Positions 4,328 to 23,437 of a stretch of 64,000 nt of DNA are shown one piece after another. The notes beneath the pieces were generated by a model. That model made no database searches, had not been told where the DNA came from, and was given only the letters and a program-made list of their open reading frames with translations. The stretch is from Candidatus Brocadiia bacterium (GTDB lineage Bacteria > Planctomycetota > PUPC01): contig JAUWIN010000002.1 in NCBI GenBank assembly GCA_030605345.1, positions 1,672 through 65,671 of the forward strand. Direction: 5' to 3'. The stretch's first letter is position 1. Each line of letters starts with the position of its first letter. Position numbers and translations under genes: made by a program.

Positions 4328-5992
4328 TCATTTGCCGGCCATCATGGCCTCGATATCCGCATCAACCGTATCGATTGGCTTGATATCGAATTTATCCACC
4401 AGGACTTTGGCCACGTTCGGGGACAGGAACGCGGGGAGAGTAGGCCCGAGCCGAATCCCCGTGACGCCCAGATGCAAAAGTGCGAGCAGAACCGTCACGG
4501 CCTTCTGCTCGTACCAGGCGATGTCGTAGGATATTGGGAGTTCGTTGATGTCGTCCAGCCCGAAGGCCTCCTTCAATTTCAAGGCAATCACCGCAAGTGA
4601 ATAGCAGTCGTTACACTGCCCGGCATCGAGCACCCGCGGGATACCGCCGATATTCCCAAGATCGAGTTTGTTGTAACGGTATTTGGCGCAGCCGGCCGTG
4701 AGAATTACCGTGTCCTTCGGCAGTTTTTCAGCCATTTCCGTGTAGTAATTTCTGGTTTTGTGCCTGCCGTCGCATCCGGCCATGACCACGAAACGTTTGA
4801 TGGCTCCGGACTTCACTGCCTCCACTACTTTGTCCGCCAGGGCGAGGACTTGGTTACGTGCGAATCCGGCGGTGATTTTGCCGGTTTCGATTTCCACGGG
4901 CGGCTCGCACGTTTTTGCCAGTTCAATGATTTCAGAAAAATCCTTGGCTCCGCCCTGGGGTCTGTCAGGAATATGTTTCGCATCTGGATATCCCGTCATG
5001 CCCGTGGTAAAGAGTCTGTCCTGATAGGTGTTATTCTTTTTGAGTGGGACCAGACAGTTCGTGGTCATCAGGATCGGCCCGTTGAAGGACTCGAATTCCT
5101 GGTTCTGGTGCCACCAGGAGCCGCCGTAATTGCCTACGAAATGCTCGTATTTCTTGAACGCCGGGTAGCAATTAGCGGGCAACATCTCGCCGTGAGTATA
5201 GACATCAACGCCGGCCCCCTCGGTCTGCGTGAGGAGTTCTTCCATGTCTTTCAAGTCGTGCCCACTTATCAGGATGCCGGGGCGACTGCGAACGCCGATG
5301 TTCACCTCGGACATCTCCTGGTGCCCGTAGGCGGAGGTGTTTGCTTTGTCCAGCAGAGCCATCGTGTTCACTGCAACTTCTCCGGACTTCAGGACCAGAT
5401 CGATCATCTCATTCACCGAGAGGTCTCTGGTGGTGGAAACCAGCGCGGTCATAATGAAATCGTAGATGTCATCCTGTTCGAGCCCGAGGATGGCCGCGTG
5501 GTCTGCATAGGCCGCAGTGCCTTTCAGGCCGATGGTCAGCAGCTCCCGCAGAGAACGCACATCTTCATCTTCGGTTGTGAGGATGCCAACGGTCTTCGCC
5601 CTTTCGTGAAACTCTGCGGGGGCATCGGATGTCCACGTTGCCGCGTCGTGCAACGCTTCGTCAAAATCCTTCCCGTGTTTCTCTTTGTAGGCGGCGGTGA
5701 ACTTGTCTTTGAGTGCCTCCCGGCGTTTCAACGCCTCTCTGACCATGCTGATGAACCGCTCATTATCCCAATTGACATTAGTGATGGTCGCAAAAAGCGC
5801 CTGTGCCACGAACTTGCCGGTCTGCCGGTCGGAGATTTCAAGCTCCCTTGCCTTTTCGGCATAGATGCTGATTCCTTTCAGCACGTAGATCAACAGGTCC
5901 TGCAAGTTGGCTGTTTCCTCAGACTTTCCGCAAACGCCCTTGACCGTACAACCCGTATTCTTGGCGGTCTCCTGACACTGAAAACAAAACAT
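4328..5992 (-). CDS. hcp: Hydroxylamine reductase / hybrid cluster protein Hcp
   Basis: N-terminal [16 protein letters not shown]ys cluster and length (~555 aa) typical of Hcp; ATG at 5992 preceded by AAGGAGGG RBS; the ORF-track start at 6070 adds 26 non-conserved residues. Confidence 0.85.
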
Positions 5993-6299
5993 ACTCACCC
6001 TCCTTTTTCTGAAGGTATCAACGTTCCCCGCCTCACCCGCACCATACCTGTGCCGGGGCAGCGGATTCACCGGATTACATACTATAACATTCCCTTAGGC
6101 GGTATCCAGATCGATCGCGTGAGAAATTCATCAACTGGTGATTGGCGGACAGATGCACCAGCGGTTTGGCAGCTGTCGCCCGCGCCGACGCCCGGCATCG
6201 CTGTTTACTTGCCCGGCGGAAGTTCGAAATGTCGGGCTGGGGTGCGATAGCGACCACGTGTCGGCTTCTCAGATTACCGATATATTCTCAACAAAATGG

Positions 6300-8694: not shown

Positions 8695-9806
8695 AACCCA
8701 AGACCATCATCACTGCCACGCTGCTCCTGTTTGTCGCCGCCAGCGTCGTCTACCTGGTGGTCAAGGAGACGGGCGGGAGACGGGCGCAGAACGCGACCCG
8801 GCCTGAAACGCCCTCCCCTCAAACCGGGCAGGAGCACGGCACGCCGCCCCCCGCCTCTTCTGAGAACGCGACGGCGATTGCCGAGGCGGCCCCGCCGCCC
8901 GCGAGTTCATCACCGGCCTCGGACACGGCTGCGAAGTCTCCCGCGACGTTGCCTGCCGTGCGGGGCGACGCGGATGACCCGACGGTGGGCAAGGAATACC
9001 CCCAACTGGCCTCGGCGGCCCTTGTCCACGCCAAGCTGGCAGAACTGCCCGACGGTGTGCTTCTCCGCGCCGAGGACACTGCAATAACGCAGAAGGACAT
9101 CGACGCGGAGGTCACCAAGGCGCCGCAGGAGCTTCGCGAGCAGTTCCGCAAGAACGCTTTTCCCCTTCTGGAGCAGATGGCCACGCGGAAGATTTTGGTG
9201 CTGGAGGCCCGGCGACACGTAAGCGGCGCGAGCGGCGACGAACGAGCGTTGCTCCAGTCATACTTCGGCAAACTTGTCGAGGATGCCCAGGTCAGCGACC
9301 GGGAGATCGCGGAGTTCTATGAAAAGAACCGCGAGATGGTCGGCGACGCGACGCTGGAGCAGGTCAAACCCCAGATCCGGCAGCACCTGCTTCAGCAGAA
9401 AAAGCAGGAGATCGTGGACCGCCATATCCAGACCATCGGGCAGCGCTCGGCGATTGCGGTGTCCGCCGGTTGGGTCAAGCAGCAGGCGGAACTGGCAAAA
9501 GATAACCCTGTGGACAAGGCTCGCGCCAGCGGAAAGCCCACCTTCGTCAACTTCGGGGCCAAAGGTTGCCGGCCGTGTGACATGATGGAACCCATCCGGC
9601 AAGCCATCAAGAAGAAGTACGCCGGCAAACTGAACGTCGTGTTCGTTCATGTCCGCAATGAGCAGATACTTGCCGCCCGATATGGCGTCCAGGCGATTCC
9701 GCTGCTTGTTTTTTTCGACAAGAACGGAAAGGAAGTGTTCCGACACACCGGTTTCATGCCCCGGGATCAATTAGAGAAGAATCTGGCGGAGATGGGAGTC
9801 CGCTAA
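8691..9806 (+). CDS. Membrane-anchored thioredoxin-domain protein with Pro/Ala-rich linker
   Basis: N-terminal TM helix, low-complexity P/A/S linker, C-terminal FVNFGAKGCRPCDMMEP thioredoxin CxxC fold; start moved to ATG overlapping upstream stop (ATGA). Confidence 0.5.
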   Translation: MKPKTIITATLLLFVAASVVYLVVKETGGRRAQNATRPETPSPQTGQEHGTPPPASSENATAIAEAAPPPASSSPASDTAAKSPATLPAVRGDADDPTVGKEYPQLASAALVHAKLAELPDGVLLRAEDTAITQKDIDAEVTKAPQELREQFRKNAFPLLEQMATRKILVLEARRHVSGASGDERALLQSYFGKLVEDAQVSDREIAEFYEKNREMVGDATLEQVKPQIRQHLLQQKKQEIVDRHIQTIGQRSAIAVSAGWVKQQAELAKDNPVDKARASGKPTFVNFGAKGCRPCDMMEPIRQAIKKKYAGKLNVVFVHVRNEQILAARYGVQAIPLLVFFDKNGKEVFRHTGFMPRDQLEKNLAEMGVR

Positions 9807-9855
9807 TGCCCTGGTGTTTTTGGAGTCTGGTTGAAAGAGGCTGGGAGTTCGTCCC

Positions 9856-10338
9856 ATGAAAGCAGAAAAAATCATCCGTAGCCTTCTGCTCGGTTTTGTG
9901 CTGATCAGCGTTGGCTTCTTCCTCGGTAAGGAAGCTGCTCTTCGTAAGGCCGGGCAGAGCGGCGAGGAAACCGCAGCAGCGAACCCCCAGGTGGCTTCAG
10001 GCGACAAAGTGCTTGTCTATTCCATGCACATGACGTTCCGCTGCTGGGAATGCAACCAGATCGAGTGGTTGACGAAGGAACTGCTGGAAAAAGAATTCGC
10101 CGAAGAAATCGCGGCCGGTCGGATCGAACACAAGGCGGTTGACTACATGAAAAACGAGAGTCTTGCCAAGCGGTACAACATCGCCTCCAGCACAGTCGTG
10201 GTTGTCCAGATTCGTAACGGGAAGGAAACACGTTTTGAGAGGCTTGACGAAGTCTGGACGAAATCCAGGAACAAGAAAGCGTTCTTTGCGTATGTCGGAG
10301 GCGCGATCCGGTCGTGCCTGAACGGGGGTAAGTCATGA
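9856..10338 (+). CDS. Small membrane-anchored CxxC protein (thioredoxin-like?), function unknown
   Basis: N-terminal TM helix then FRCWECNQIEWL motif; GGGAG RBS; translationally coupled to ccdA-like gene. Confidence 0.4.
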   Translation: MKAEKIIRSLLLGFVLISVGFFLGKEAALRKAGQSGEETAAANPQVASGDKVLVYSMHMTFRCWECNQIEWLTKELLEKEFAEEIAAGRIEHKAVDYMKNESLAKRYNIASSTVVVVQIRNGKETRFERLDEVWTKSRNKKAFFAYVGGAIRSCLNGGKS

Positions 10339-11024
10339 TGTCCCGGCTGGTAATCGCCTCTGCCCTGTGGCTGGGAATCCTGACCTCCATCAGCCCATGC
10401 CCGCTGGCAACTAATATCGCCGCGGTCTCCTTCATCAGCCGAAGGGTCAGCAGCACGCGCCAAGTCCTCCTTTCAGGCCTGCTCTATACGGTGGGAAGAA
10501 CCGTTACCTACGTGACATTGGGCGTTGTCGTGATAGCCGGCCTGATGGCCAGTGGGGATATCGCCCGGTTCCTCCAGAAGTACCTCAATCAGGTCCTTGG
10601 CCCCGCGCTAATCCTGGTTGGCATGCTGCTGCTGGGGCTTCTCGGATTCACCGGCTCGCTTAGCCTGGCGGGTTCCGGTGTGCAGAAACGGGCCTCCCAG
10701 GGAGGCATCTGGTGGGCGGCCTTTTTGGGCATCCTGTTCCCCCTGTCTTTCTGCCCGGTTTCGGCGGGACTGTTTTTCGGGGGTTTGATCCCGCTGTCCG
10801 CGTCGAACAGATCGAGATTCCTGCTTCCAATGCTCTATGGGATAGGTACGGCACTGCCGGTCATTGTGTTTGCATTCCTGATGGCGTTCGCATCGCAGTA
10901 TGTAGGCCAGGCGTTCAACCGCCTGACCCAGATCGAACGTTGGATACGTGTGATTACCGGCGTCATTTTCATCCTCGTAGGTACCTACTACTGCCTGGCC
11001 CACATCTTCGTCGTGTTCTCGTAG
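10335..11024 (+). CDS. Cytochrome c biogenesis CcdA / DsbD transmembrane-domain family protein
   Basis: ISPCPLATNI first-Cys motif in TM1, 6-TM topology, ~229 aa. Confidence 0.65.
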   Translation: MMSRLVIASALWLGILTSISPCPLATNIAAVSFISRRVSSTRQVLLSGLLYTVGRTVTYVTLGVVVIAGLMASGDIARFLQKYLNQVLGPALILVGMLLLGLLGFTGSLSLAGSGVQKRASQGGIWWAAFLGILFPLSFCPVSAGLFFGGLIPLSASNRSRFLLPMLYGIGTALPVIVFAFLMAFASQYVGQAFNRLTQIERWIRVITGVIFILVGTYYCLAHIFVVFS

Positions 11025-11243
11025 TTCGTGACGGTTGCTTTCGGGGTGCGGTGCGGAAAGACCTGCAGCGCCTGTGGGAACTCATCCGTGGCGAGAAGGA
11101 TGCCTTTCTGAAATATGTGAAGGACGAGACCACGGGCTACCTGCACGCGGCAGGCAAATGACCGAGCTTCTACTTGTCGCAGCATCGCCGTTCTGGTTGG
11201 CAATTCGGTGATGCCTATGACAAGCTCGTTCCCTTCCAGAAGG

Positions 11244-12773
11244 TTATTCGTCAAGCATCTTTTTGGCTTTCCTCAGCTTCTCACTGAACGGGCCTTTTTT
11301 GAACGCTTTGCGCCACTTTCTCACGATGAAATAACCCATCGAGCCGAGCACGTCGTTGCGCCAGTGCCGGTACCAATTGCGCCAGCGGGTGCGGAGGTGC
11401 ACCAACGGCATCATGGCCAGCGGGAAGCGTAGAATCCGCAACACCAGCCCGGACATGCGGCTCAGACGGTAGAAACCGCCCATCAGCGACAGCATCGATT
11501 TCTGCATTTCCTCCGGCGTCAGCGGCGGGTCGGGCACAATGACCGGGAAGTTCCCGTCGTAATACTCCCAGCCGATCTCGCTGTTGGGCAGGACGCGGCC
11601 GGCCTTCTCGAGCCGATCGCGCAATGCGGTCCCGGGTATAGGCACGGGCAGGAGGGCCTGCACGGTGTCCAAGTGGGCTTCGCGGAAGAAGGCACGGAAG
11701 CGTTTGACCCGCTCGGCATTGCTCATGTGGAATTCCACACCGGGGCGCATGGGATATCCGAAGATGAACATACCATGGACAAGGAAGTCATGCCGGTGAT
11801 AGATCCTGGCCAGTTCCGCCATGTCGTCGGCCTTCAGCCGCTTGCCCATGGCGCGGAGTTCCTCGTCGATGGGCGACTCGATCCCGATGGCTACGCACTT
11901 GATGCGACACTCGCGCATAGCGGTCAACAATTCTTCATCGTGAGCGCAGTCCAACCTTATCTGCACGGTAAGGAAGAAACGCAGGCCCATGCTGCTCTGG
12001 TAGTCGCGGAGCATCCGGCAGAAACGCAGTGTCTCGTTGCGGTCCTGGCCGAATTGGTCATCGACTATAAAAAACTCCCGCGCGTGGTGGCTCTCGGCCA
12101 GGTAGCTTACCTGGGCCATCAGGCGTTCCGGTTTGGCGCAGCGTGCCCGGCCCTTCACCGCGCAAAATTCGCAGTTCATCCCGCAGCCGCGGATGCGGCT
12201 TATGGGAAAGAGCTTGAGCTTGGCGAACCGCAGCAGGCCGAAGTCGGGCAGTGGGAGCATATCGAAGTCCTCCAGCGGCGGGCGCGTCGCTGTGCGGAGC
12301 GGGGAACCGTTGTTCATGAATGTTATGCCCGGCACATCCTCCAGGGCGCCCCCCGAGTCCCGCGTATCCAGCAACTCCCGCACGGTTAGCTCGCCCTCGC
12401 CATTGACCACCACGTCCAGCCCGCTGCGCAGCGCATCCTCGGGCAGAGCGTCGAGGTGGTAGCCGCCGCCAATGGTGAAAACGCCGGCTTCCTTGTAGAA
12501 AGAGGCCACGGCGAACAGGCGGGGCACGGTGCAGGAAAGTCCCCCGTAGAACCCCACAACGTCAGCCGGGCGCATCTTCTGGAGTGCCTCGTGGTCCGGT
12601 ATGCCCTCCTCATCCACCGGCGCGGGGAAGCGGTAGTTATTTTCGTCGATGATTTCCACGTCCCAACCGGGCATCTTGCTCACGGAGGTGGCGACGCAGA
12701 TCGGCCCGAGTGCGGTGGTCTTCTTGGCTATGTGGCTGTACACGTTGAAGGCCGGATACTTGGGAATGACCAT
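11244..12773 (-). CDS. B12-binding domain radical SAM protein (class B radical SAM)
   Basis: CGMNCEFCAV CxxxCxxC motif, N-terminal Rossmann-like B12-binding region, ~510 aa; ORF-track start at 12887 (TTG) adds a low-complexity 38-aa extension, so start taken at MVIPKYPAFN. Confidence 0.65.
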   Translation of the reverse strand: MVIPKYPAFNVYSHIAKKTTALGPICVATSVSKMPGWDVEIIDENNYRFPAPVDEEGIPDHEALQKMRPADVVGFYGGLSCTVPRLFAVASFYKEAGVFTIGGGYHLDALPEDALRSGLDVVVNGEGELTVRELLDTRDSGGALEDVPGITFMNNGSPLRTATRPPLEDFDMLPLPDFGLLRFAKLKLFPISRIRGCGMNCEFCAVKGRARCAKPERLMAQVSYLAESHHAREFFIVDDQFGQDRNETLRFCRMLRDYQSSMGLRFFLTVQIRLDCAHDEELLTAMRECRIKCVAIGIESPIDEELRAMGKRLKADDMAELARIYHRHDFLVHGMFIFGYPMRPGVEFHMSNAERVKRFRAFFREAHLDTVQALLPVPIPGTALRDRLEKAGRVLPNSEIGWEYYDGNFPVIVPDPPLTPEEMQKSMLSLMGGFYRLSRMSGLVLRILRFPLAMMPLVHLRTRWRNWYRHWRNDVLGSMGYFIVRKWRKAFKKGPFSEKLRKAKKMLDE

Positions 12774-13634
12774 GCGGAAAATGCGCCGCCTGCTGGCCTC
12801 AGTGATACCGGCCTCAGAATTGCGCCGGCCTTCTCTGGACCCGGATTGAGTTTCATTCATCATCTTGCCTTCCATATCTGAACACAACCGGTAGTTATCA
12901 GCCCTCGCCTTGGTCCTTCATCGTTTCGACTGCCTCCCATCTTATCGCTTCAGCGTCTCAAGTGCAATTCCGCAGAAAGTTGCTTCCGGAACTGCGATGT
13001 GAACGGTGCTGTTGGCCCAAGGCGCACTGCTCGGGAAGGCGCAAGGAAGACCACGCCGAGCTGTTCGACACGACTGGCGAGGCATCCGCAATTCTTGGCG
13101 GCACGTTCTGGGTCCCGCGCAGCAGGTGAACCCTGGGGTTGCCACCTACAACATCTGCAGTCGAGCCGAATTTGTCGCATCACTTCATTCGGAACGGAGC
13201 TGTTAGGCACAGGCACCGGCTGTGTCATCTCAGACCTCGCGGCGTCCTGTAGCGGCGTGATTGGCGCCTTTCCCCTCTGAGCTACGTCATCAGCCGAGCC
13301 GCGTTGAGCTGGCTCAGCGTGATGATTTCCTTCGGGTGGGTGGCCCTCCCACGCTTCCTTTTTATCAGCCATGCCTTTGTCCCAGAGAAAAGGGGCCTTA
13401 CCGGTTGCTACCCCGGACGAGGGCCTGCGACGGCCGGACGCGAGGGTTCACTGGCAGGCGCCTCATGGAAGGAGCATGCCGGGCTATTGCCCCCGTGCCC
13501 TCCGTACGGTCGGACTCTTCGGCAGCGACCAACGCCCAGTCAGGCGAAACTCGGTTGTCGGATACTATGACAGTCTCCCCTTCACATAATGGCAACAAGC
13601 AGTCTTTCTCAGAACTACTGGGCGGCTTGGGGTT

Positions 13635-13663
13635 TTGACACATGTCTCTTTCGCGCGTATCAT
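13635..13663 (+). promoter_or_regulatory. sigma70-like promoter TTGACA-17-TATCAT ~145 nt upstream of TIR gene
   Basis: Read directly: ttgacacatgtctctttcgcgcgtatcat. Confidence 0.4.
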
Positions 13664-13806
13664 GCCCGACAGTTGCATTGCACAACACGTGCATAGAGGA
13701 GAAGAATATCGGCCAAGGGGACAGATGGTCAGTACCAAGACAAGCAGACGCTTCAAAGTGGGCCCCTTATTCCCTGGTGAGCGCCCCCAATTAGAGGGCA
13801 CAAATC

Positions 13807-14745
13807 TTGTCTGACTGTGTACCAAGCGCCGTGACTCAGAAGTGGGATGTCTTCATTTCCCACGCGTCTGAAGACAAGGAGAGCTTTGTACGCCCCTTGG
13901 CTATCGCGCTGCGAAGACTCGACGTTTCGGTGTGGTATGACGAGTTCTCATTGCGGGTGGGCGACAGCATTTCCGGCGCCATCGACAAGGGGCTTGCGGA
14001 GTCCGCGTACGGTCTTGTTGTGATCAGCCGAGCGTTCATTGAGAAGCCTTGGCCCAAGCGCGAACTCCGTGGTCTTGTCACGAGGGAAGTTGGAGGCCGC
14101 AAGGTCATCTTGCCAATATGGCATGGCCTCACGCACAGGGAAGTCATGAAGTTCAGCCCGCCGCTCGCCGACGCGCTGGCAATCGACACTGCCAAGGTAA
14201 GCCCTCAAGATGCAGCAATTCAGATCCTGCAAGTTGTTCGGCCAGACCTCTATAATGGGCACCCACGCTCTCAGCTTGAGAAGTTGGCTACTGGTGAAGC
14301 CATCACAGACCTACAGCGAGAGGTCGAACGAGCCCGCGCAGAACAAGAAGCCTTGCGTGAAGAGCTATCTGAATATCAATGCCCCTACTGTGAAGCGCCG
14401 CTAGCTATCAGGGTCGATGCGCCAGTTGACGAGGAACAGAAGCACTGGGACATGCGCGAGGCCTACGAGTGCGGCTACCAGTGTTTTGGCGGCTCCATGG
14501 AGAGGCCGTGCCCAGCCGACCCGAAGTCCCCGAAGTTCGAAGATTACGAGTTGCGGTTCACCGAGGACCCCGAGGAGCCGAAGTGGTGCTGCCACGCAGT
14601 GCCCAAAACGTATATGGCCCGACTTTTGTGGCTATCATCGGGTTACGGCGCCACAAGGAAGGAAGCGGAACGCTCTGTGCGGGATCAATACAACGCATGT
14701 GCCCGAAGAGCGCGCAAGCAGCCGGGCAACGGTGGAACGCAATAA
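13807..14745 (+). CDS. TIR-domain protein with C-terminal coiled-coil and Cys-rich (zinc-ribbon-like) extension; ThsB-like
   Basis: WDVFISHASEDKESFVRPLAIALRRLDVSVWYDE ... SRAFIEKPWPKRELRGL: canonical bacterial TIR motifs including conserved Glu; TTG start with AGAGGG RBS; C-terminal CPYCEAP...YECGYQCFGG...CPADP...WCCH. Confidence 0.8.
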   Translation: MSDCVPSAVTQKWDVFISHASEDKESFVRPLAIALRRLDVSVWYDEFSLRVGDSISGAIDKGLAESAYGLVVISRAFIEKPWPKRELRGLVTREVGGRKVILPIWHGLTHREVMKFSPPLADALAIDTAKVSPQDAAIQILQVVRPDLYNGHPRSQLEKLATGEAITDLQREVERARAEQEALREELSEYQCPYCEAPLAIRVDAPVDEEQKHWDMREAYECGYQCFGGSMERPCPADPKSPKFEDYELRFTEDPEEPKWCCHAVPKTYMARLLWLSSGYGATRKEAERSVRDQYNACARRARKQPGNGGTQ

Positions 14746-14781
14746 TCTGACGACGGGACCGCAGGTCAGGAGAGAAACGGC

Positions 14782-15948
14782 ATGGTTGCGAGCAAAGCGG
14801 AAAGAGACCTGGTGCTATTCCTCGGTGCAGGCTTTTCGCGCGATGCTGGCCTACCTATCATGAGCGAGTTCGGAGCGAGTTCGAGAAGAGCCTACAGGCG
14901 CTGCAGAATGAAGCAGGACAGACGCGAAATGGGGCCTATTTACGTCAAAGCTGGCGCGGTATTCAGAAAGTTTCAGCAGTTCTGCAGCCGTGGGGGTTCC
15001 GTGCTGAGCATCGACCACGACAATATGGAGGTCGTCTTCTGTGTGGCAGAGGCCCTGCGCCAAACGTTGGGTTCATCAGCGAAGATCCTGCGGTCATACG
15101 GCAGGGATTACACTGCCGCTGAGGTGTATGAACAGATCCAAGTGTGGCTGTGGAAGATGTACCAAGTTAATCCCTTGCCCAGGGATTGGCGGCAGAGCCG
15201 CTACACAACATTCGTGAAAGCGCTGAAGAACGCGAAAGCACCAGAGAAAGTTGCGGTTATAACTACCAACTACGACCTGGTCTTCGAATCATTCGCTTGG
15301 AGAGTGGGGCTGCCGTGCGAGTATGCTGTAGCCAATTCTCGGCGCATATCTGGAGGAGGACGCACTGAATCGTATTTGGCCAGCGGGCCCGGACCCCGCC
15401 CTTTGCTCGTGTGCAAGCTTCACGGCAGCATCAATTATTTCACCGATTCAGGAGAAGACGAACAGCTCTTCATCTGCGACGACGTCCTCAAGAGCGGCGA
15501 CTACGTCACCGAGGATGGTAGAGTCAGGCATGGAGGCACAGAGCGGCCTTGGGTTCTCTCCTTTGACGCGGTAACCCGGCTGCGCAGGAAATACAAGGGG
15601 GATTTCGTGCCCGCCCTCATTCCCCCTACCTACGGTAAGCTGGAGCAATTCGATTGGCTGAGACGCATCTGGAGAAGTGCATTTGATGCACTCAGGTCTG
15701 CCAAGAAGCTTGTATTCATTGGATATAGCATGGCTGAGAGCGATGGTCATTTGCGCGCCATGATACAATCGGCCATGTCCAAGCGCACGCTGGCTAGTCC
15801 GCCCGAGGTCTACGTTTTTGACCCGTCACCTGAAGCGCTGGTGCGGTATCGTCAGTTCTTTGCTCCTCTGAAGTTAGCCTCGGCCCAACACCTCTGGGGT
15901 ATGGATTTCGCAACCACCTGCGACACAAAGCTTCCGGACGTGCTGTAG
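14782..15948 (+). CDS. SIR2-like (SIR2_2 family) NAD-dependent effector-type protein, no SLOG domain
   Basis: LFLGAGFS...GLP N-terminal motif, ITTNYD, CKLHGS (His), VFIGYSMAESD motifs all match SIR2_2/ThsA-N-terminal family; AGGAGAG RBS; 36 bp downstream of TIR gene. Confidence 0.75.
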   Translation: MVASKAERDLVLFLGAGFSRDAGLPIMSEFGASSRRAYRRCRMKQDRREMGPIYVKAGAVFRKFQQFCSRGGSVLSIDHDNMEVVFCVAEALRQTLGSSAKILRSYGRDYTAAEVYEQIQVWLWKMYQVNPLPRDWRQSRYTTFVKALKNAKAPEKVAVITTNYDLVFESFAWRVGLPCEYAVANSRRISGGGRTESYLASGPGPRPLLVCKLHGSINYFTDSGEDEQLFICDDVLKSGDYVTEDGRVRHGGTERPWVLSFDAVTRLRRKYKGDFVPALIPPTYGKLEQFDWLRRIWRSAFDALRSAKKLVFIGYSMAESDGHLRAMIQSAMSKRTLASPPEVYVFDPSPEALVRYRQFFAPLKLASAQHLWGMDFATTCDTKLPDVL

Positions 15949-16235
15949 GGTCGAAATCTTGCGCTGCCGCGAGCGATGTTATTATGGGCAGTGGGACGGG
16001 CGCAGAGCTGCCAAATTCGTCGTTGCTCGCGCCAGTCGGACATGGCCGCGATGTGGCGCAGCTCTTTTTCGGTGACGGGGTCGTGACCGTTGAGGCTCTT
16101 GGGAAGGAAGAGCATGTCTTCCTGGATGTCGGGGGCTAGGAGAAGCAGGTTCATGATTTGCGTTAGTCGTGCGCGGGAGACGTGGCTGAGGCGCGCGAGG
16201 TCGGCGTACTCGCGGCCTTTGCCACACCACCCCAT
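15949..16235 (-). other. Possible remnant ORF carrying a ParB-type helix-turn-helix (LARLSHVSRARLTQIMNLLLLAPDIQEDMLFLP)
   Basis: HTH pattern resembles ParB/Spo0J SRSHVANLLRLLKLP..VQ; ORF is short, lacks the rest of a ParB nuclease domain and overlaps the SIR2 3' end, so likely a degraded mobile/plasmid gene. Confidence 0.2.
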
Positions 16236-16446
16236 TCCAACCAGGGTTGTTAACCGGAACGCTCTCGCCGGGTGAGAGTCCGAGAGCCTTCGGCTTTTCG
16301 GCCAGACGTGGCGGGATTCCGGTTAACTGAAAGAGAGAATCGCGGCGCGCCATACAGTAGAAGTCGTTCTGGCGACTTCACTGTATGTTGACGCCATCAG
16401 GTGAAGCAAGTGGCGCGAGCTTCTACTTTGGGAAGGGGAGAGGCGG

Positions 16447-16713
16447 TCAATCGGGCTGGCCTGATGCGTTGAAGAACTCCCGCAGCATGAGCTTCAGAGC
16501 TCTCTTGCCCGCGGTCTTCTTGAAGTATTTCTCGCGACGTTCCGCATCTTTGCGATTGCTAAATGCCTCGTAGAAGATCAGCCTGACGGGCCTTCGGCCC
16601 TTCGTGGACGCGACCTGCCCTTTCCTGTGACGCTCCACCCGTTTCTTCAAATCGGAGGTGTAGCCGGTGTAGAGCTTCCCATCGCCACAAAGAAGCACAT
16701 AGACATAATACAC
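16447..16713 (-). CDS. GIY-YIG nuclease family small protein
   Basis: MYYVYVLLCGDGKLYTGYTSDLKKRVERHRKG...: GIY-YIG catalytic motif and conserved Arg/His, 88 aa. Confidence 0.7.
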   Translation of the reverse strand: MYYVYVLLCGDGKLYTGYTSDLKKRVERHRKGQVASTKGRRPVRLIFYEAFSNRKDAERREKYFKKTAGKRALKLMLREFFNASGQPD

Positions 16714-16831
16714 AGGGAAGGCACCAGCCGGTTTTGGAGGATACGCAGGCCCCCCTGTAGTGGAAACTCGCTACGCTCGGTTCACTGCAGGGCATCGCCA
16801 TACAGTGAAGCCGCCCGCGGCATCTACTGTA

Positions 16832-16918
16832 TGGCTCCTCGGGTAGGACTCGAACCTACAGCCTAGCGGTTAATCCGCCTCCGGCGGACCGCTCTACCAA
16901 TTAAGCTATCGAGGAAAC
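16832..16918 (-). tRNA. tRNA gene, class II (long variable arm); anticodon tentatively GGA (Ser) with encoded CCA
   Basis: Minus-strand cloverleaf readable: U8, D-loop A14/G18G19/A21, anticodon stem GTCCG/CGGAT, T-arm GTAGG-TTCGAGT-CCTAC, 7-bp acceptor with one mismatch, G73, CCA; anticodon loop CCGGAGG is atypical (C33). Confidence 0.6.
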
Positions 16919-17052
16919 TGGCACACCATGGAATATACGGAACGCGGCGGGTTGTGTCAGCCTCGCGCGCGGTCCGACATCGTGGACGGTGCCGCTTGAA
17001 CCGTCCGGTTCGTCGGCGGTATAATCTTCACACCGAAGAAGGACTTGCAGGG

Positions 17053-17532
17053 ATGATGCAGAAACTCCAAACGTTGATCTGCTATGCCATCGTTCTGGTG
17101 GTGCTTGTTGTTCTCTATTATATTGCCACGAGTTTCGCCGTGGCGATTGTGGACGAAAAGTTCACCCGCATGGAGCCGACGCTCGAATCAGGGGGCACGT
17201 ATTTCCTCGACCGGCGCAGTTCGACAGTAACGTCACTGAGCCGGGATGATTTGATTGCTTACAAAATAATGCATAAGCAAAAAACCAAGCGTATGTTCGG
17301 CCGGGTGCTTGCGCTGCCGGGAGCAACGGTGCGGGTCAGTGACAAAAAACTCCTGGTGAACGGCGATGAAACGGCGAACGCTCCCCGCAGCATCAGCACG
17401 CTGAAGACGGGACTGCTTGTGCCCAGGGATACGGTACTGGTCGGTTTCGACTCACAAAAACGCGGCAGAATCTCCCTGTCGCAGCGGCTCGTGCCTTATC
17501 GCAGTATCATCGGGCGGGTGATAGGCAAATGA
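17053..17532 (+). CDS. lepB: Signal peptidase I (S26 family)
   Basis: TM anchor then FTRMEPTL (catalytic Ser box) and later boxes; start moved to MMQKL, ORF-track N-terminal 33 aa are Arg-rich non-conserved. Confidence 0.65.
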   Translation: MMQKLQTLICYAIVLVVLVVLYYIATSFAVAIVDEKFTRMEPTLESGGTYFLDRRSSTVTSLSRDDLIAYKIMHKQKTKRMFGRVLALPGATVRVSDKKLLVNGDETANAPRSISTLKTGLLVPRDTVLVGFDSQKRGRISLSQRLVPYRSIIGRVIGK

Positions 17533-20201: not shown

Positions 20202-20987
20202 ATGAAGGTCGCTATTACAGGCAAGGGCGGGGTCGGCAAGACCACTATCACAGCGCTTGCTGCTCGTCGGCTGGCGGAGCAGGGCCGCAAGGTATTGGCA
20301 GTGGATGCCGACCCGGACACCAATCTGGCGGCGGCTCTCGACTTCCCATCCCCAGAGGAAATTGTGCCCATCGTAGAGATGAAGCAGATGATCGCCGAAC
20401 GTATGGGCACTCGGCCGGGTTCTGTGGGGACGTACTTTAAACTCAATCCGAACGTAGATGACCTGCCGGCGAAGCATTGCATAGAGCATCAGGGCGTCAG
20501 GCTTATCGTGATGGGGATGGTAAAAAGAGGCGGAGCGGGGTGCGCCTGCCCTGAAAACGCCTTCCTCAAGGTCCTGCTTAGCCACGTCCTTCTCCGCCAG
20601 AATGAGGACGTGCTGGTGGACATGGAAGCCGGACTGGAGCATCTCGGTCGGGCCACTGCTTCTGCGGTGGACGGGCTTCTGGTCGTGGTCGAGCCCGGGC
20701 TGCGCAGCCTTGAGACGCTCGAGCGCATCCGCACGCTTGCCTCTGATATTGGTTTGAAGCGGTGTTGGGCCGTCGCAAACAAGGTCACATCTGACGACGA
20801 GCGAGCTTTCCTGTCAGACCACGCGCCGGACGGTGGCTTCGTTGGCTCGCTCCCGTCCAGCAAGAACGTCGTGAGCGCAAGCCGGGGACAAGGCTCGTTG
20901 AGGGACGTAGAGCCCGAAGTATGGCAGGAGATTGATTCGGTCCTGCAAGCAATAAACAGCAATCAAGCAGTCGAAAGGACAGGTTGA
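20202..20987 (+). CDS. cooC: CO dehydrogenase maturation ATPase CooC (Ni-insertion, MinD/ParA fold)
   Basis: MKVAITGKGGVGKTT deviant Walker A, ~261 aa, immediately upstream (ATGA overlap) of cooS. Confidence 0.8.
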   Translation: MKVAITGKGGVGKTTITALAARRLAEQGRKVLAVDADPDTNLAAALDFPSPEEIVPIVEMKQMIAERMGTRPGSVGTYFKLNPNVDDLPAKHCIEHQGVRLIVMGMVKRGGAGCACPENAFLKVLLSHVLLRQNEDVLVDMEAGLEHLGRATASAVDGLLVVVEPGLRSLETLERIRTLASDIGLKRCWAVANKVTSDDERAFLSDHAPDGGFVGSLPSSKNVVSASRGQGSLRDVEPEVWQEIDSVLQAINSNQAVERTG

Positions 20988-22920
20988 TGAGCAAGGGAAA
21001 AAGTGCTTCACGCTCGATAGACCCGGCGTCTCAGGAAATGCTGGAAAGGGCAGAGGCAGCGGACATCTCGACGGCCTGGGACCGGTTGGAAGAGATGGAG
21101 CCGCAGTGCGGATTCGGACGGCTGGGCATTTGCTGCCGCAACTGCTCGATGGGGCCATGCCGCATCGACCCGTTCGGCGAAGGCCCGCAGGCCGGTGTAT
21201 GCGGCGCGAACGCCGACACCATCGCCGCAAGGAACCTGCTTCGCATGGTGGCTGGCGGCGCCGCAGCCCATTCCGACCACGGCCGCGACATCGCTCACAC
21301 GCTCAAAATGGTGGTAGACGCCAAGGCCGCCGACTACACCATCAAGGACGGACAGAAGCTCCGGCAAGTGGCCGCGAGATACGGCGTCGAGACCGGGGAA
21401 AAGGACGACAAAGCGATTGCCGCTGAACTTTCCGAGGTTGTGCTCGCCGAATTTGGGAAGCAGGAAGGTTCCCTCACCAGTGCGTCCGCTTACGCTCCGC
21501 CAGCCAGGGTGGAGCTGTGGGAGCGCCTCGGCATCATGCCGCGTTCTATCGACCGTGAGATCGTCGAATCGATGCACCGCACACACATTGGGGTGGACTG
21601 CGACTACAGAAATCTGGTAAAGCACGCCCTGCGCCTGAGCCTTTCCGATGGCTGGGGCGGGTCGCTCGTCGCTACGGAGCTCTCCGACATCCTGTTCCAG
21701 GGCCCCGAACCCATTCGCTTCGGCGCCAACCTGGGGGCGCTGGAAGAAGACAAGGTAAACGTGGTGGTGCACGGGCACGAACCTACGCTCTCCGACATCA
21801 TCGTTGCCGTCTCCGGCGAAGAGGAACTCCAGAAACTGGCCGAGGAAAAGGGGGCGAAAGGAATAAATATCGTGGGGATGTGCTGTACAGGGAACGAAAT
21901 ACTAATGCGCCATGGCATCCCGGTCGCCGGCAATTTCCTTCAGCAGGAACTGGCGGTGATACCGGCAGCGTCGAACTGATGGTGGTTGACGTCCAGTGCA
22001 TAATGCCCGCCCTCAGCTCCCTGTGCAATTGCTTTCACACCAAACTCATCCCCACCTCGCCCAAGTGCAAGATGGAAGGCGTCGAGCACGTCGAGTTCCA
22101 CGAAGAGGCGGCGATGGAAATCGCGCGAAAAATCATCAAAACCGCGGTCGAGAACTTCCCCAACCGCGGCAGCGACGTACACATACCTGACCACAAAGAG
22201 CAGGCCATCGGCGGATTCACCACCGAAAACATCTTTCACATACTCGGTGGGTTCTACAGGAGCACATATCGGCCCCTCAACAACGCAATAATAGAAGGGC
22301 GCGTGCGCGGCGCCGCCGGGGTCGTCGGGTGCAACAACCCGAAAGGCCGGCACGATTACGGCCATATCACCATGATGAAGGAACTTATCAAGAACGATGT
22401 TCTGGTGGTCGCGACAGGATGCGGTGCCATCGCCGCGGCAAAGGAAGGCCTGATGCGGCCCGAGGCGGCGGACCTTTGCGGAAAGGGCCTGGCTGAGGTC
22501 TGTAGGGCGGTCGGGATACCGCCCGTGCTCCACGTTGGCTCGTGTGTGGACAACAGCCGAATCCTGACAATCCTCGCAAACGTGGTCGCTGAGGGCGGCC
22601 TGGGCGAGGACATATCCGACTTGCCGGTGGCCGGGGCGGCGCCGGAGTGGATGTCCGAGAAGGCCGTCTCCATCGGGATGTATTTCGTCGCTTCCGGCGT
22701 CTATACCGTGCTCTGCCAGCCGCTGCCGGTGCTGGGCAGCGAGAAGTTGACGCGACTGCTCACGGAAGAACTCGAGGACCAGGTCGGCGGCATGTGGGGA
22801 TGGGACCCGGACCCAGTCAAGGCGGCGCACTTGATGATTGATCACATCAACAAGAAGCGCAAGGCACTGAAATTGCGGCCGATGATGTACCAGACAGCGC
22901 CGGTGGGCGCCAGCGGATAA
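20984..22920 (+). CDS. cooS: Anaerobic Ni-CO dehydrogenase catalytic subunit CooS/AcsA; interrupted by an apparent -1 frameshift near 21960-21975
   Basis: N-terminal CGFGRLGICCRNCSMGPCRIDPFGEG (B/D-cluster cysteines) in frame 2 (20984..21979); C-terminal half MVVDVQCIMP...HVGSCVDNSRIL in frame 1 (from ~21964); expected ...ELAVITGSVELMVVD is split as ELAVIP / GDTGSVELMVVD, consistent with a missing A in gtgata(a)ccggc. Confidence 0.8.
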
Positions 22921-22942: not shown

Positions 22943-23437
22943 ATGCGAAAAATCATGGTGGACCTCCAACTGTGCATGGGCTGCAACAGTTGCGAGATTG
23001 CCTGCGCAGTTCAGCACTCGCAAAGCGGTGATCTCTTCGAAGCGTTGAAAGAGCCTGTCCTGCCCGGATACCGCCTGCGAGTGAGGGCAAGCTACGGGAT
23101 GCCGTTCCCGCTGCGCTGCGAGCAGTGCGAGGACGCACCCTGCATCGATGCCTGCAAGAGTGGTGCAATGGCCCGCGACCCGGAGACCGCCTCGGTGCAG
23201 ATCGATGAAGACAAATGTGTGGGGGGCTGGATGTGCGTGATGGTCTGTCCATTTGGAGCGGTTTTCCCTGATATGGAAAGGGGCAAGGCGGTCAAGTGCG
23301 ACCTTTGCCGCGGGCACGAACGGCCCGCCTGCGTGGACGCCTGTCCCACCAAAGCCCTGAGCTACGTCGAGCCGGACGAGTTCGCCGCCCGGTACATGCG
23401 CGCCGAAGCCGCAAAGACCTCAACGGAGGCTGAGTGA
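22943..23437 (+). CDS. cooF: CooF-like 4Fe-4S ferredoxin-type electron transfer protein
   Basis: CMGCNSCEIAC, CEQCEDAPCIDAC, CVGGWMCVMVCP, CDLC...CVDACP cluster motifs; follows cooS. Confidence 0.75.
   Translation: MRKIMVDLQLCMGCNSCEIACAVQHSQSGDLFEALKEPVLPGYRLRVRASYGMPFPLRCEQCEDAPCIDACKSGAMARDPETASVQIDEDKCVGGWMCVMVCPFGAVFPDMERGKAVKCDLCRGHERPACVDACPTKALSYVEPDEFAARYMRAEAAKTSTEAE

Follow-up and report, generated by a model that had tools for sequence, protein, structure and literature searches.

Two adjacent candidate NADase genes

A 64,000-nt stretch of contig JAUWIN010000002.1 from a Candidatus Brocadiia bacterium, hereafter called the window, carries a gene for a TIR-domain protein that is followed, 36 bp later on the same strand, by a gene for a SIR2_2-family protein. 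An earlier note on this DNA had proposed a Thoeris-like two-gene system in which the TIR protein signals to the SIR2 protein. The present analysis leads to a different reading, which we hold to be probable: each gene would encode a candidate anti-phage NADase that works on its own, and the two happen to be adjacent, are probably co-transcribed, and form a small acquired islet beside a tRNA-Ser gene. Two independent genes are preferred to a Thoeris-like system because the pairing is conserved in neither family (0 of 80 SIR2 loci, 0 of 16 TIR loci). Conservation of the gene neighbourhood had been named beforehand as a check that could refute the proposal, and only a near-identical locus (L179) was found to repeat the pair.

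If this is correct, the locus does not extend the list of known signalling systems. It flags two abundant, uncharacterised single-gene families, TIR proteins of ~300 aa and single-domain SIR2 proteins of ~390 aa, which are likely to serve NAD+-targeting defence and which current defence-finder models would miss or annotate only in part. Both genes can plausibly be counted as defence candidates and represent uncharacterised one-gene variants on known themes of NADase defence. That two 'defence-flavoured' domains adjoin in a single genome is no evidence of a system unless conservation of the pairing has been seen. Of more use as leads are the very widespread TIR-helix-Cys-rich family and its portable C-terminal module.

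Relatives of both genes occur singly

All six-frame open reading frames (ORFs) of 80 metagenomic SIR2-family loci were searched with hidden Markov models (HMMs) of both families. Upstream flanks reached at least 300 bp in 60 of the 80 loci and at least 1 kb in 47, and 44 had at least 1 kb downstream. No TIR was found in any of the 80, and an HMM of the TIR domain only, run on these loci with filters off and E values up to 10, gave a best match of only E 2.2. The window and L179 served as positive controls of the pair search, and both were detected. L179 is the only other copy of the pair; because its DNA is 99.7% identical to window positions 12445-15886 and it comes from the same population, it is not independent evidence. 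The closest SIR2 relatives, P0002 (56% identity), L019 (54%) and P0015 (51%), all lack a TIR neighbour: P0002 lies with genes for a thiamine pyrophosphate (TPP) enzyme and a DUF5131 protein, and P0015 with a beta-propeller-like gene. In L186, two same-frame ORF segments split by a stop codon (1631-2620) match the SIR2 homologue P0015, which may there be a pseudogene or reflect a sequencing error.

Among the 122 immediate neighbours in the 80 SIR2 loci, neither TIR nor HerA is found in the 25 commonest of 82 Pfam families. The neighbours include type I, IIG, II and III restriction-modification genes, Fic/SoFic, HepT, BglII and, in one lineage, Mur ligases. When the flanks were clustered, only lineage-restricted neighbours emerged, namely Mur ligases at 9 loci and type IIG restriction-modification at 5 loci. 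In L024, L025 and L027, from one metagenomic lineage, Mur-ligase paralogues flank the standalone SIR2 gene on both sides, a housekeeping context that differs from the restriction-modification and toxin genes near other family members. A further homologue (P0059, 35% identity) stands in L002-L004 in a same-strand array with genes for a ~2150-aa protein, an RNase_H_2 protein and a DUF4236 protein; this array may be a different mobile element or multi-gene context.

For the TIR family, 16 full-length loci were surveyed, made up of six independent contexts and ten GTDB loci. SIR2 of the same family was near none of the 16, and clustering of the flanking ORFs gave no neighbour common to them except shadow ORFs of the TIR gene itself. 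Locus L111, alone among the TIR-domain loci in having a SIR2-like ORF, was not counted as a pair, its SIR2 match being fragmentary and distant (3.5e-09) and placed ~3.8 kb downstream of a different TIR architecture. The neighbours of the TIR family comprise AbiJ, IS21, type I and type III restriction-modification, BrnT, HEPN/NTase, UvrD and Schlafen-AlbA genes. It can be seen that both families occur singly, often near restriction-modification, toxin-antitoxin or abortive-infection (Abi) genes.

A possibility to be considered is that neither gene serves defence, the TIR protein acting in host interaction, as Tcp proteins do, or in NAD metabolism, and the SIR2 protein serving as a protein deacylase, an ADP-ribosyltransferase or a regulator. 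TcpB/BtpA, PdTIR and AbTir were indeed first described as virulence-type Tcp proteins, and some SIR2-family genes lie among housekeeping genes (the Mur ligase paralogues; glycosidase and Kelch genes). However, both families recur near restriction-modification, toxin-antitoxin and Abi genes in unrelated lineages, at patchy and variable positions, and according to the literature the PF13289-type SIR2 proteins characterised to date are defence NADases. The source, moreover, appears to be an environmental anaerobe with a carbon monoxide dehydrogenase/acetyl-CoA synthase (CODH/ACS) cluster, so that no animal host is expected. We therefore regard a role outside defence as highly improbable.

The TIR protein

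Coordinates are those of the window, and all features of the two genes lie on the forward (+) strand. The predicted model of the TIR protein (predicted local distance difference test, pLDDT, 90.8) consists of a TIR domain, a long helix and a beta-rich C-terminal domain. The Pfam family TIR_2 matches aa 15-138 at 4.7e-19, above its curated cut-off, and the domain as defined by Pfam, homologue alignment and model extends over aa 13-150 (13843..14256). Within the motif KPWPKRELRGL, which the earlier note had taken as the context of the catalytic Glu, W82 and E86 align with W204 and E208 of AbTir; E86 (codon 14062-14064), four residues after W82, is invariant across 120 homologues, in agreement with that assignment. 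It was described previously that E208 is the catalytic Glu of AbTir and that the W204 position is informative for cyclase activity (preprint 10.1101/2022.05.07.491051). The domain shares 46-48% identity with the AbTir/PdTIR clade and keeps its catalytic Trp and Glu, and its nearest solved relatives are TcpB/BtpA, PdTIR and AbTir (34 PDB sequence matches). From these conserved residues we infer that the TIR protein may cleave NAD+ with production of 2' cyclic ADP-ribose (2'cADPR).

The architecture differs from that of AbTir, PdTIR, BtTir and TcpB(BtpA). These proteins have an N-terminal coiled coil followed by the TIR domain and lack the Cys-rich C-terminal domain found here, whereas the present protein places the TIR domain first, then the helix and then the Cys-rich domain, an inverted and extended order. 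Among PADLOC models the best match is PDC-S66, a single-gene TIR model (3e-60, over the TIR domain); only positions 144-280 of its 282 are matched, its N-terminal half is missing here, and the Cys-rich domain is not in the model. The helix (aa 164-188; 14296..14370), which is seen in the model, is probably a coiled-coil or dimerisation element, to judge from the predicted structure.

The earlier note had also claimed an extra sensor-like C-terminal domain, and this description held. The domain (aa ~190-300; 14374..14706) is beta-rich and Cys-rich, with conserved C192, C195, C222, C235 and C262, and no Pfam family matches it. A profile search of 1.84 billion representatives recovered the module in 198, C-terminal in all of them and preceded by either a TIR domain or an Xre-type helix-turn-helix (HTH), the HTH fusions being ~200 aa long (examples are P0298, P0334, P0340, P0346 and P0275). 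Since the module is always C-terminal and fused to TIR or Xre HTH, it fits a built-in regulatory or sensor domain; judged by its distribution, it appears to be a portable, modular element of that kind.

The TIR family comprises more than 3000 clusters at 90% identity, with proteins of ~300 aa that are 56-68% identical over the full length. Its members come from Ralstonia (L005-L008, Ralstonia solanacearum), Atribacteria, Binatia, Desulfobaccales, Bacillota, Acidobacteria, Pseudomonadota and other taxa. Such identity across distant phyla (P0122-P0240; L005-L008; L099-L108) is unusually high for a defence-island gene. It suggests that the family is under strong constraint and has frequently been transferred.

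On the reading of two autonomous genes, the TIR protein would be a self-contained sensor-effector built from TIR domain, coiled-coil helix and Cys-rich module. TIR NADase activity depends on self-association. The Cys-rich module, with the helix as dimerisation element, may detect a phage cue or control the clustering of TIR domains, and would in this way switch on NAD+ depletion or the production of a cADPR isomer, as for AbTir. A working model is offered by SpbK of Bacillus subtilis ICEBs1, a single-gene TIR NADase whose non-TIR domain docks on the phage portal and thereby causes TIR clustering and activation (PMC12847820). The likeness is one of working model only and not of homology: in both cases one polypeptide would couple a non-TIR sensor to a TIR NADase, but no sequence relationship was detected beyond the TIR fold, the 34 PDB sequence matches do not include SpbK, and its sensor domain is N-terminal whereas the putative one here is C-terminal and Cys-rich.

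The SIR2 protein

Pfam SIR2_2 (PF13289) matches aa 158-351 of the SIR2 protein at 5.3e-12, which exceeds the curated cut-off, so that ORFs and Pfam agree with the earlier note on the identity of both members of the pair. The four motifs that it had listed were located at aa 12-19 (LFLGAGFS), 161-165 (TTNYD), 213-216 (LHGS) and 312-316 (FIGYS). The GAGxS motif and the catalytic Asn, Asp and His of the SIR2_2 NADase superfamily are thus all present. The family comprises about 330 clusters. In an alignment of 120 homologues (~390 aa, 32-57% identity), which extends over the full length, G15, A16, G17 and S19 are conserved in at least 90%, and T162, N163, Y164, D165, H214, G215, G314, Y315, D321 and G322 are invariant; the putative catalytic residues are N163 and D165 (codons within 15268-15276) and H214 (codon 15421-15423).

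The AlphaFold2 model is of high quality (pLDDT 92.8; predicted template modelling score, pTM, 0.91) and shows a single compact domain. The catalytic motifs span aa 12-322 of the 388, so that ~65 residues remain after them. No SLOG, Macro or other known ligand-binding domain was detected in the protein, and the ThsA models of PADLOC and NCBIfam gave no match to it. In the predicted structure, then, the SIR2 protein has no SLOG domain, as the earlier note had stated.

We propose that the SIR2 enzyme, once activated, would deplete NAD+ by hydrolysis at its Asn/Asp/His site without a linked partner, and each of the two genes alone would be a candidate abortive-infection NADase. Single-gene SIR2 NADase defence is known from DSR1 and DSR2, and DSR2 was matched by Foldseek at E 4.1e-04. 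The matched DSR2 chain, however, has 971 residues, and DSR2 is described as binding the phage tail tube through sensor domains in its middle and C-terminal parts, whereas the protein here has 388 aa and one domain. In the literature no characterised standalone single-domain SIR2 was found.

In fold, the closest relative appears to be the SIR2 subunit of SIR2-HerA (Nezha / Gao_Her_SIR), at an identity of only 16-19%. Membership of that system was rejected, because no HerA is adjacent, the neighbours here being the TIR gene and a recombinase fragment, and none is among the 25 commonest neighbour families of the 80 related loci. It may be considered whether one or both genes need unlinked partners, such as a HerA-like ATPase for the SIR2 protein or a distant effector for the product of the TIR protein. 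The Trp/Glu signature of the TIR domain, which suggests cyclase products over plain hydrolysis, would be in keeping with such an effector. On the other hand, known SIR2-HerA genes adjoin each other, the identity to their SIR2 subunits is low, and HerA is absent from the 25 commonest Pfam families of the other window proteins, as it is from those of the 122 SIR2 neighbours. To our knowledge, defence partners are almost always linked, which also counts against this explanation, and we judge it quite unlikely.

Gene arrangement and comparison with Thoeris systems

The TIR gene (13807..14745) encodes 312 aa from a TTG start codon with AGAGGG 8 nt upstream; in the near-identical contig the start was called at a GTG 8 codons downstream, giving 304 aa. 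The SIR2 gene (14782..15948) encodes 388 aa from an ATG, and its Shine-Dalgarno sequence, AGGAGA, lies upstream within the 36-bp intergenic spacer (14746..14781). The promoter announced in the earlier note, a sigma-70-like match of the form TTGACA-17 nt-TATCAT (13635..13663), is present 144 nt upstream of the TIR start codon and agrees with the consensus at 11 of 12 positions, but it is suggestive only, because 3 such sites were observed in the region against 1.6 expected. A scan of the 36-bp spacer found no terminator-like site between the genes, and a weak terminator-like hairpin (15958..15973; 6 pairs, poor T-run) follows 10 nt past the SIR2 stop codon. The upstream promoter match, the absence of a terminator-like site between the genes and the weak hairpin after the second make a bicistronic transcript plausible, and by these signals the two genes are probably co-transcribed.

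The locus resembles type I Thoeris in that a TIR gene lies beside a gene of the SIR2_2 family, with both chemistries centred on NAD+, and in that the TIR protein has TIR_2 with the invariant E86 and a partial match, over the TIR part, to the PADLOC ThsB1 model (1.1e-34). It differs in two respects. ThsA has a C-terminal SLOG domain that binds 3'cADPR, which is missing from the SIR2 protein here, and the TIR and effector genes of type I Thoeris are conserved neighbours, whereas the pairing here is not conserved. Having neither SLOG nor a match to ThsA models, the locus is not ordinary type I Thoeris, and this assignment was rejected. In Thoeris types II-XI a cognate non-SIR2 effector (Macro-TM, SLOG, caspase-like, DUF2270, DUF6650 and others) adjoins the TIR gene, whereas only SIR2_2 is found here. 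A 2025 survey of TIR signalling, in its available portion, describes Thoeris types I-XI and 29 putative effector classes, sets standalone TIR proteins aside, and has SIR2 only as SIR2-SLOG ThsA or Gao_Her_SIR and no SLOG-less SIR2 (bioRxiv 10.64898/2025.12.03.692087). No description of a TIR plus SIR2-only system was found in the literature.

It may be asked whether the two genes nevertheless form a lineage-specific functional pair, a minimal system of Thoeris-like or complex-forming kind. The C-terminal domain of the TIR protein would then perceive infection, and the TIR protein would activate the SLOG-less SIR2 protein by a cADPR-type product or by contact. Several observations point this way. 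The layout is that expected of a functional pair: 36 bp separate the genes, which lie on the same strand, share one upstream promoter-like site and have no terminator-like site between them, and both proteins are expected to act on NAD+. Their GC contents at third codon positions (GC3) are near-identical (0.65 for TIR, 0.64 for SIR2), which also fits joint acquisition, and the arrangement is kept in the second assembly, although that copy is not independent. The TIR part matches ThsB1, as given above. Two preprints report that TIRs of the AbTir clade produce 2'cADPR and that this compound is a bona fide Thoeris signal, used by type VI systems (10.1101/2022.05.07.491051; bioRxiv 10.64898/2025.12.03.692087). 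Further points count against the reading of two autonomous defence genes. The solved SIR2 defence proteins nearest in fold work with a partner (HerA), and a precedent for an autonomous single-domain enzyme was not found. Finally, the defence role of both families is guilt by association, and neither was found in viral contigs, a pattern scan of IMG/VR having detected no member of the SIR2 family and no instance of the TIR protein's Cys-rich C-terminal domain; on the same result an origin of the genes from phage was rejected.

Nevertheless, we consider a functional pair unlikely. The pairing is not conserved in ~100 independent loci of either family, and each protein is a typical, full-length representative of its family, both families being found alone. 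The SIR2 protein is one compact domain without any SLOG, Macro or other known ligand-binding domain, and SLOG-less SIR2 does not figure in the available text and supplements of the 2025 Thoeris survey. Still less probable, and in our view very unlikely, is that this lineage has brought together two NADase genes that normally act alone as a minimal TIR-to-SIR2 signalling pair. Were it true, a Thoeris-like circuit that perceives its signal in a new way would have been met at the moment of its emergence. Two genes that would act independently in this organism therefore remain the preferred reading, since pairing fails in both families.

Genomic surroundings and acquisition

The earlier note had placed the pair in an island next to a tRNA gene. 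The tRNA was confirmed by ARAGORN and Rfam as tRNA-Ser(GGA) (16832..16915, - strand), with its 3' end facing the TIR-SIR2 islet, but 'island' says rather too much: with the exception of a recombinase fragment and a small GIY-YIG gene, core metabolism makes up the remainder of the window, and the pair is not part of a larger defence island. The recombinase-fragment ORF (15852..16235, - strand) matches phrog_14161 at positions 76-140 of 143 (E 2.1e-11), that is, only the C-terminal half of this phage family, and overlaps the 3' end of the SIR2 gene by 97 nt; it has no Pfam or PADLOC match and, from this partial similarity, is probably a mobile-element remnant. The GIY-YIG protein (88 aa; 16447..16713, - strand; Pfam GIY-YIG 4e-17) is encoded adjoining the tRNA gene. 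GC3 of the TIR and SIR2 genes is lower than the 0.74-0.80 of the flanking core genes, and this, together with the recombinase fragment and the GIY-YIG gene by the tRNA, points to acquisition from elsewhere. A tRNA-integrated island with att repeats was rejected, as a search of 9000-17100 for direct repeats of the tRNA-Ser end gave none and there is no integrase.

The flanking genes encode a B12/radical S-adenosylmethionine (SAM) enzyme, thioredoxin/DsbD, a signal peptidase, a tetratricopeptide repeat (TPR) protein and the CODH/ACS cluster, and no Pfam-recognised gene lies in the region upstream of the TIR gene. When the 54 other proteins of the window were scanned with PADLOC, none of them matched an effector model, be it ThsA, SLOG, Macro or another. 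Only one of the 54 matches any PADLOC model at E <=1e-8, a Csa3-like protein (3.7e-17); CRISPR-Cas genes were not otherwise noticed in the window.

Two minor observations concern the remainder of the window. An 85-nt tRNA-Ile(GAT) was called by ARAGORN at 23233-23317, where the Rfam tRNA model gave no match at its gathering score; the call is probably a false positive, because the site lies inside the ORF 22943-23434. A Prismane/CO-dehydrogenase gene is split into two overlapping + strand ORFs in different frames (20984-21979 and 21880-22920), which cover profile positions 1-271 and 271-512; a frameshift, decay to a pseudogene or faulty assembly would account for the split, and an intact paralogue is present at 4328-6070 on the - strand.

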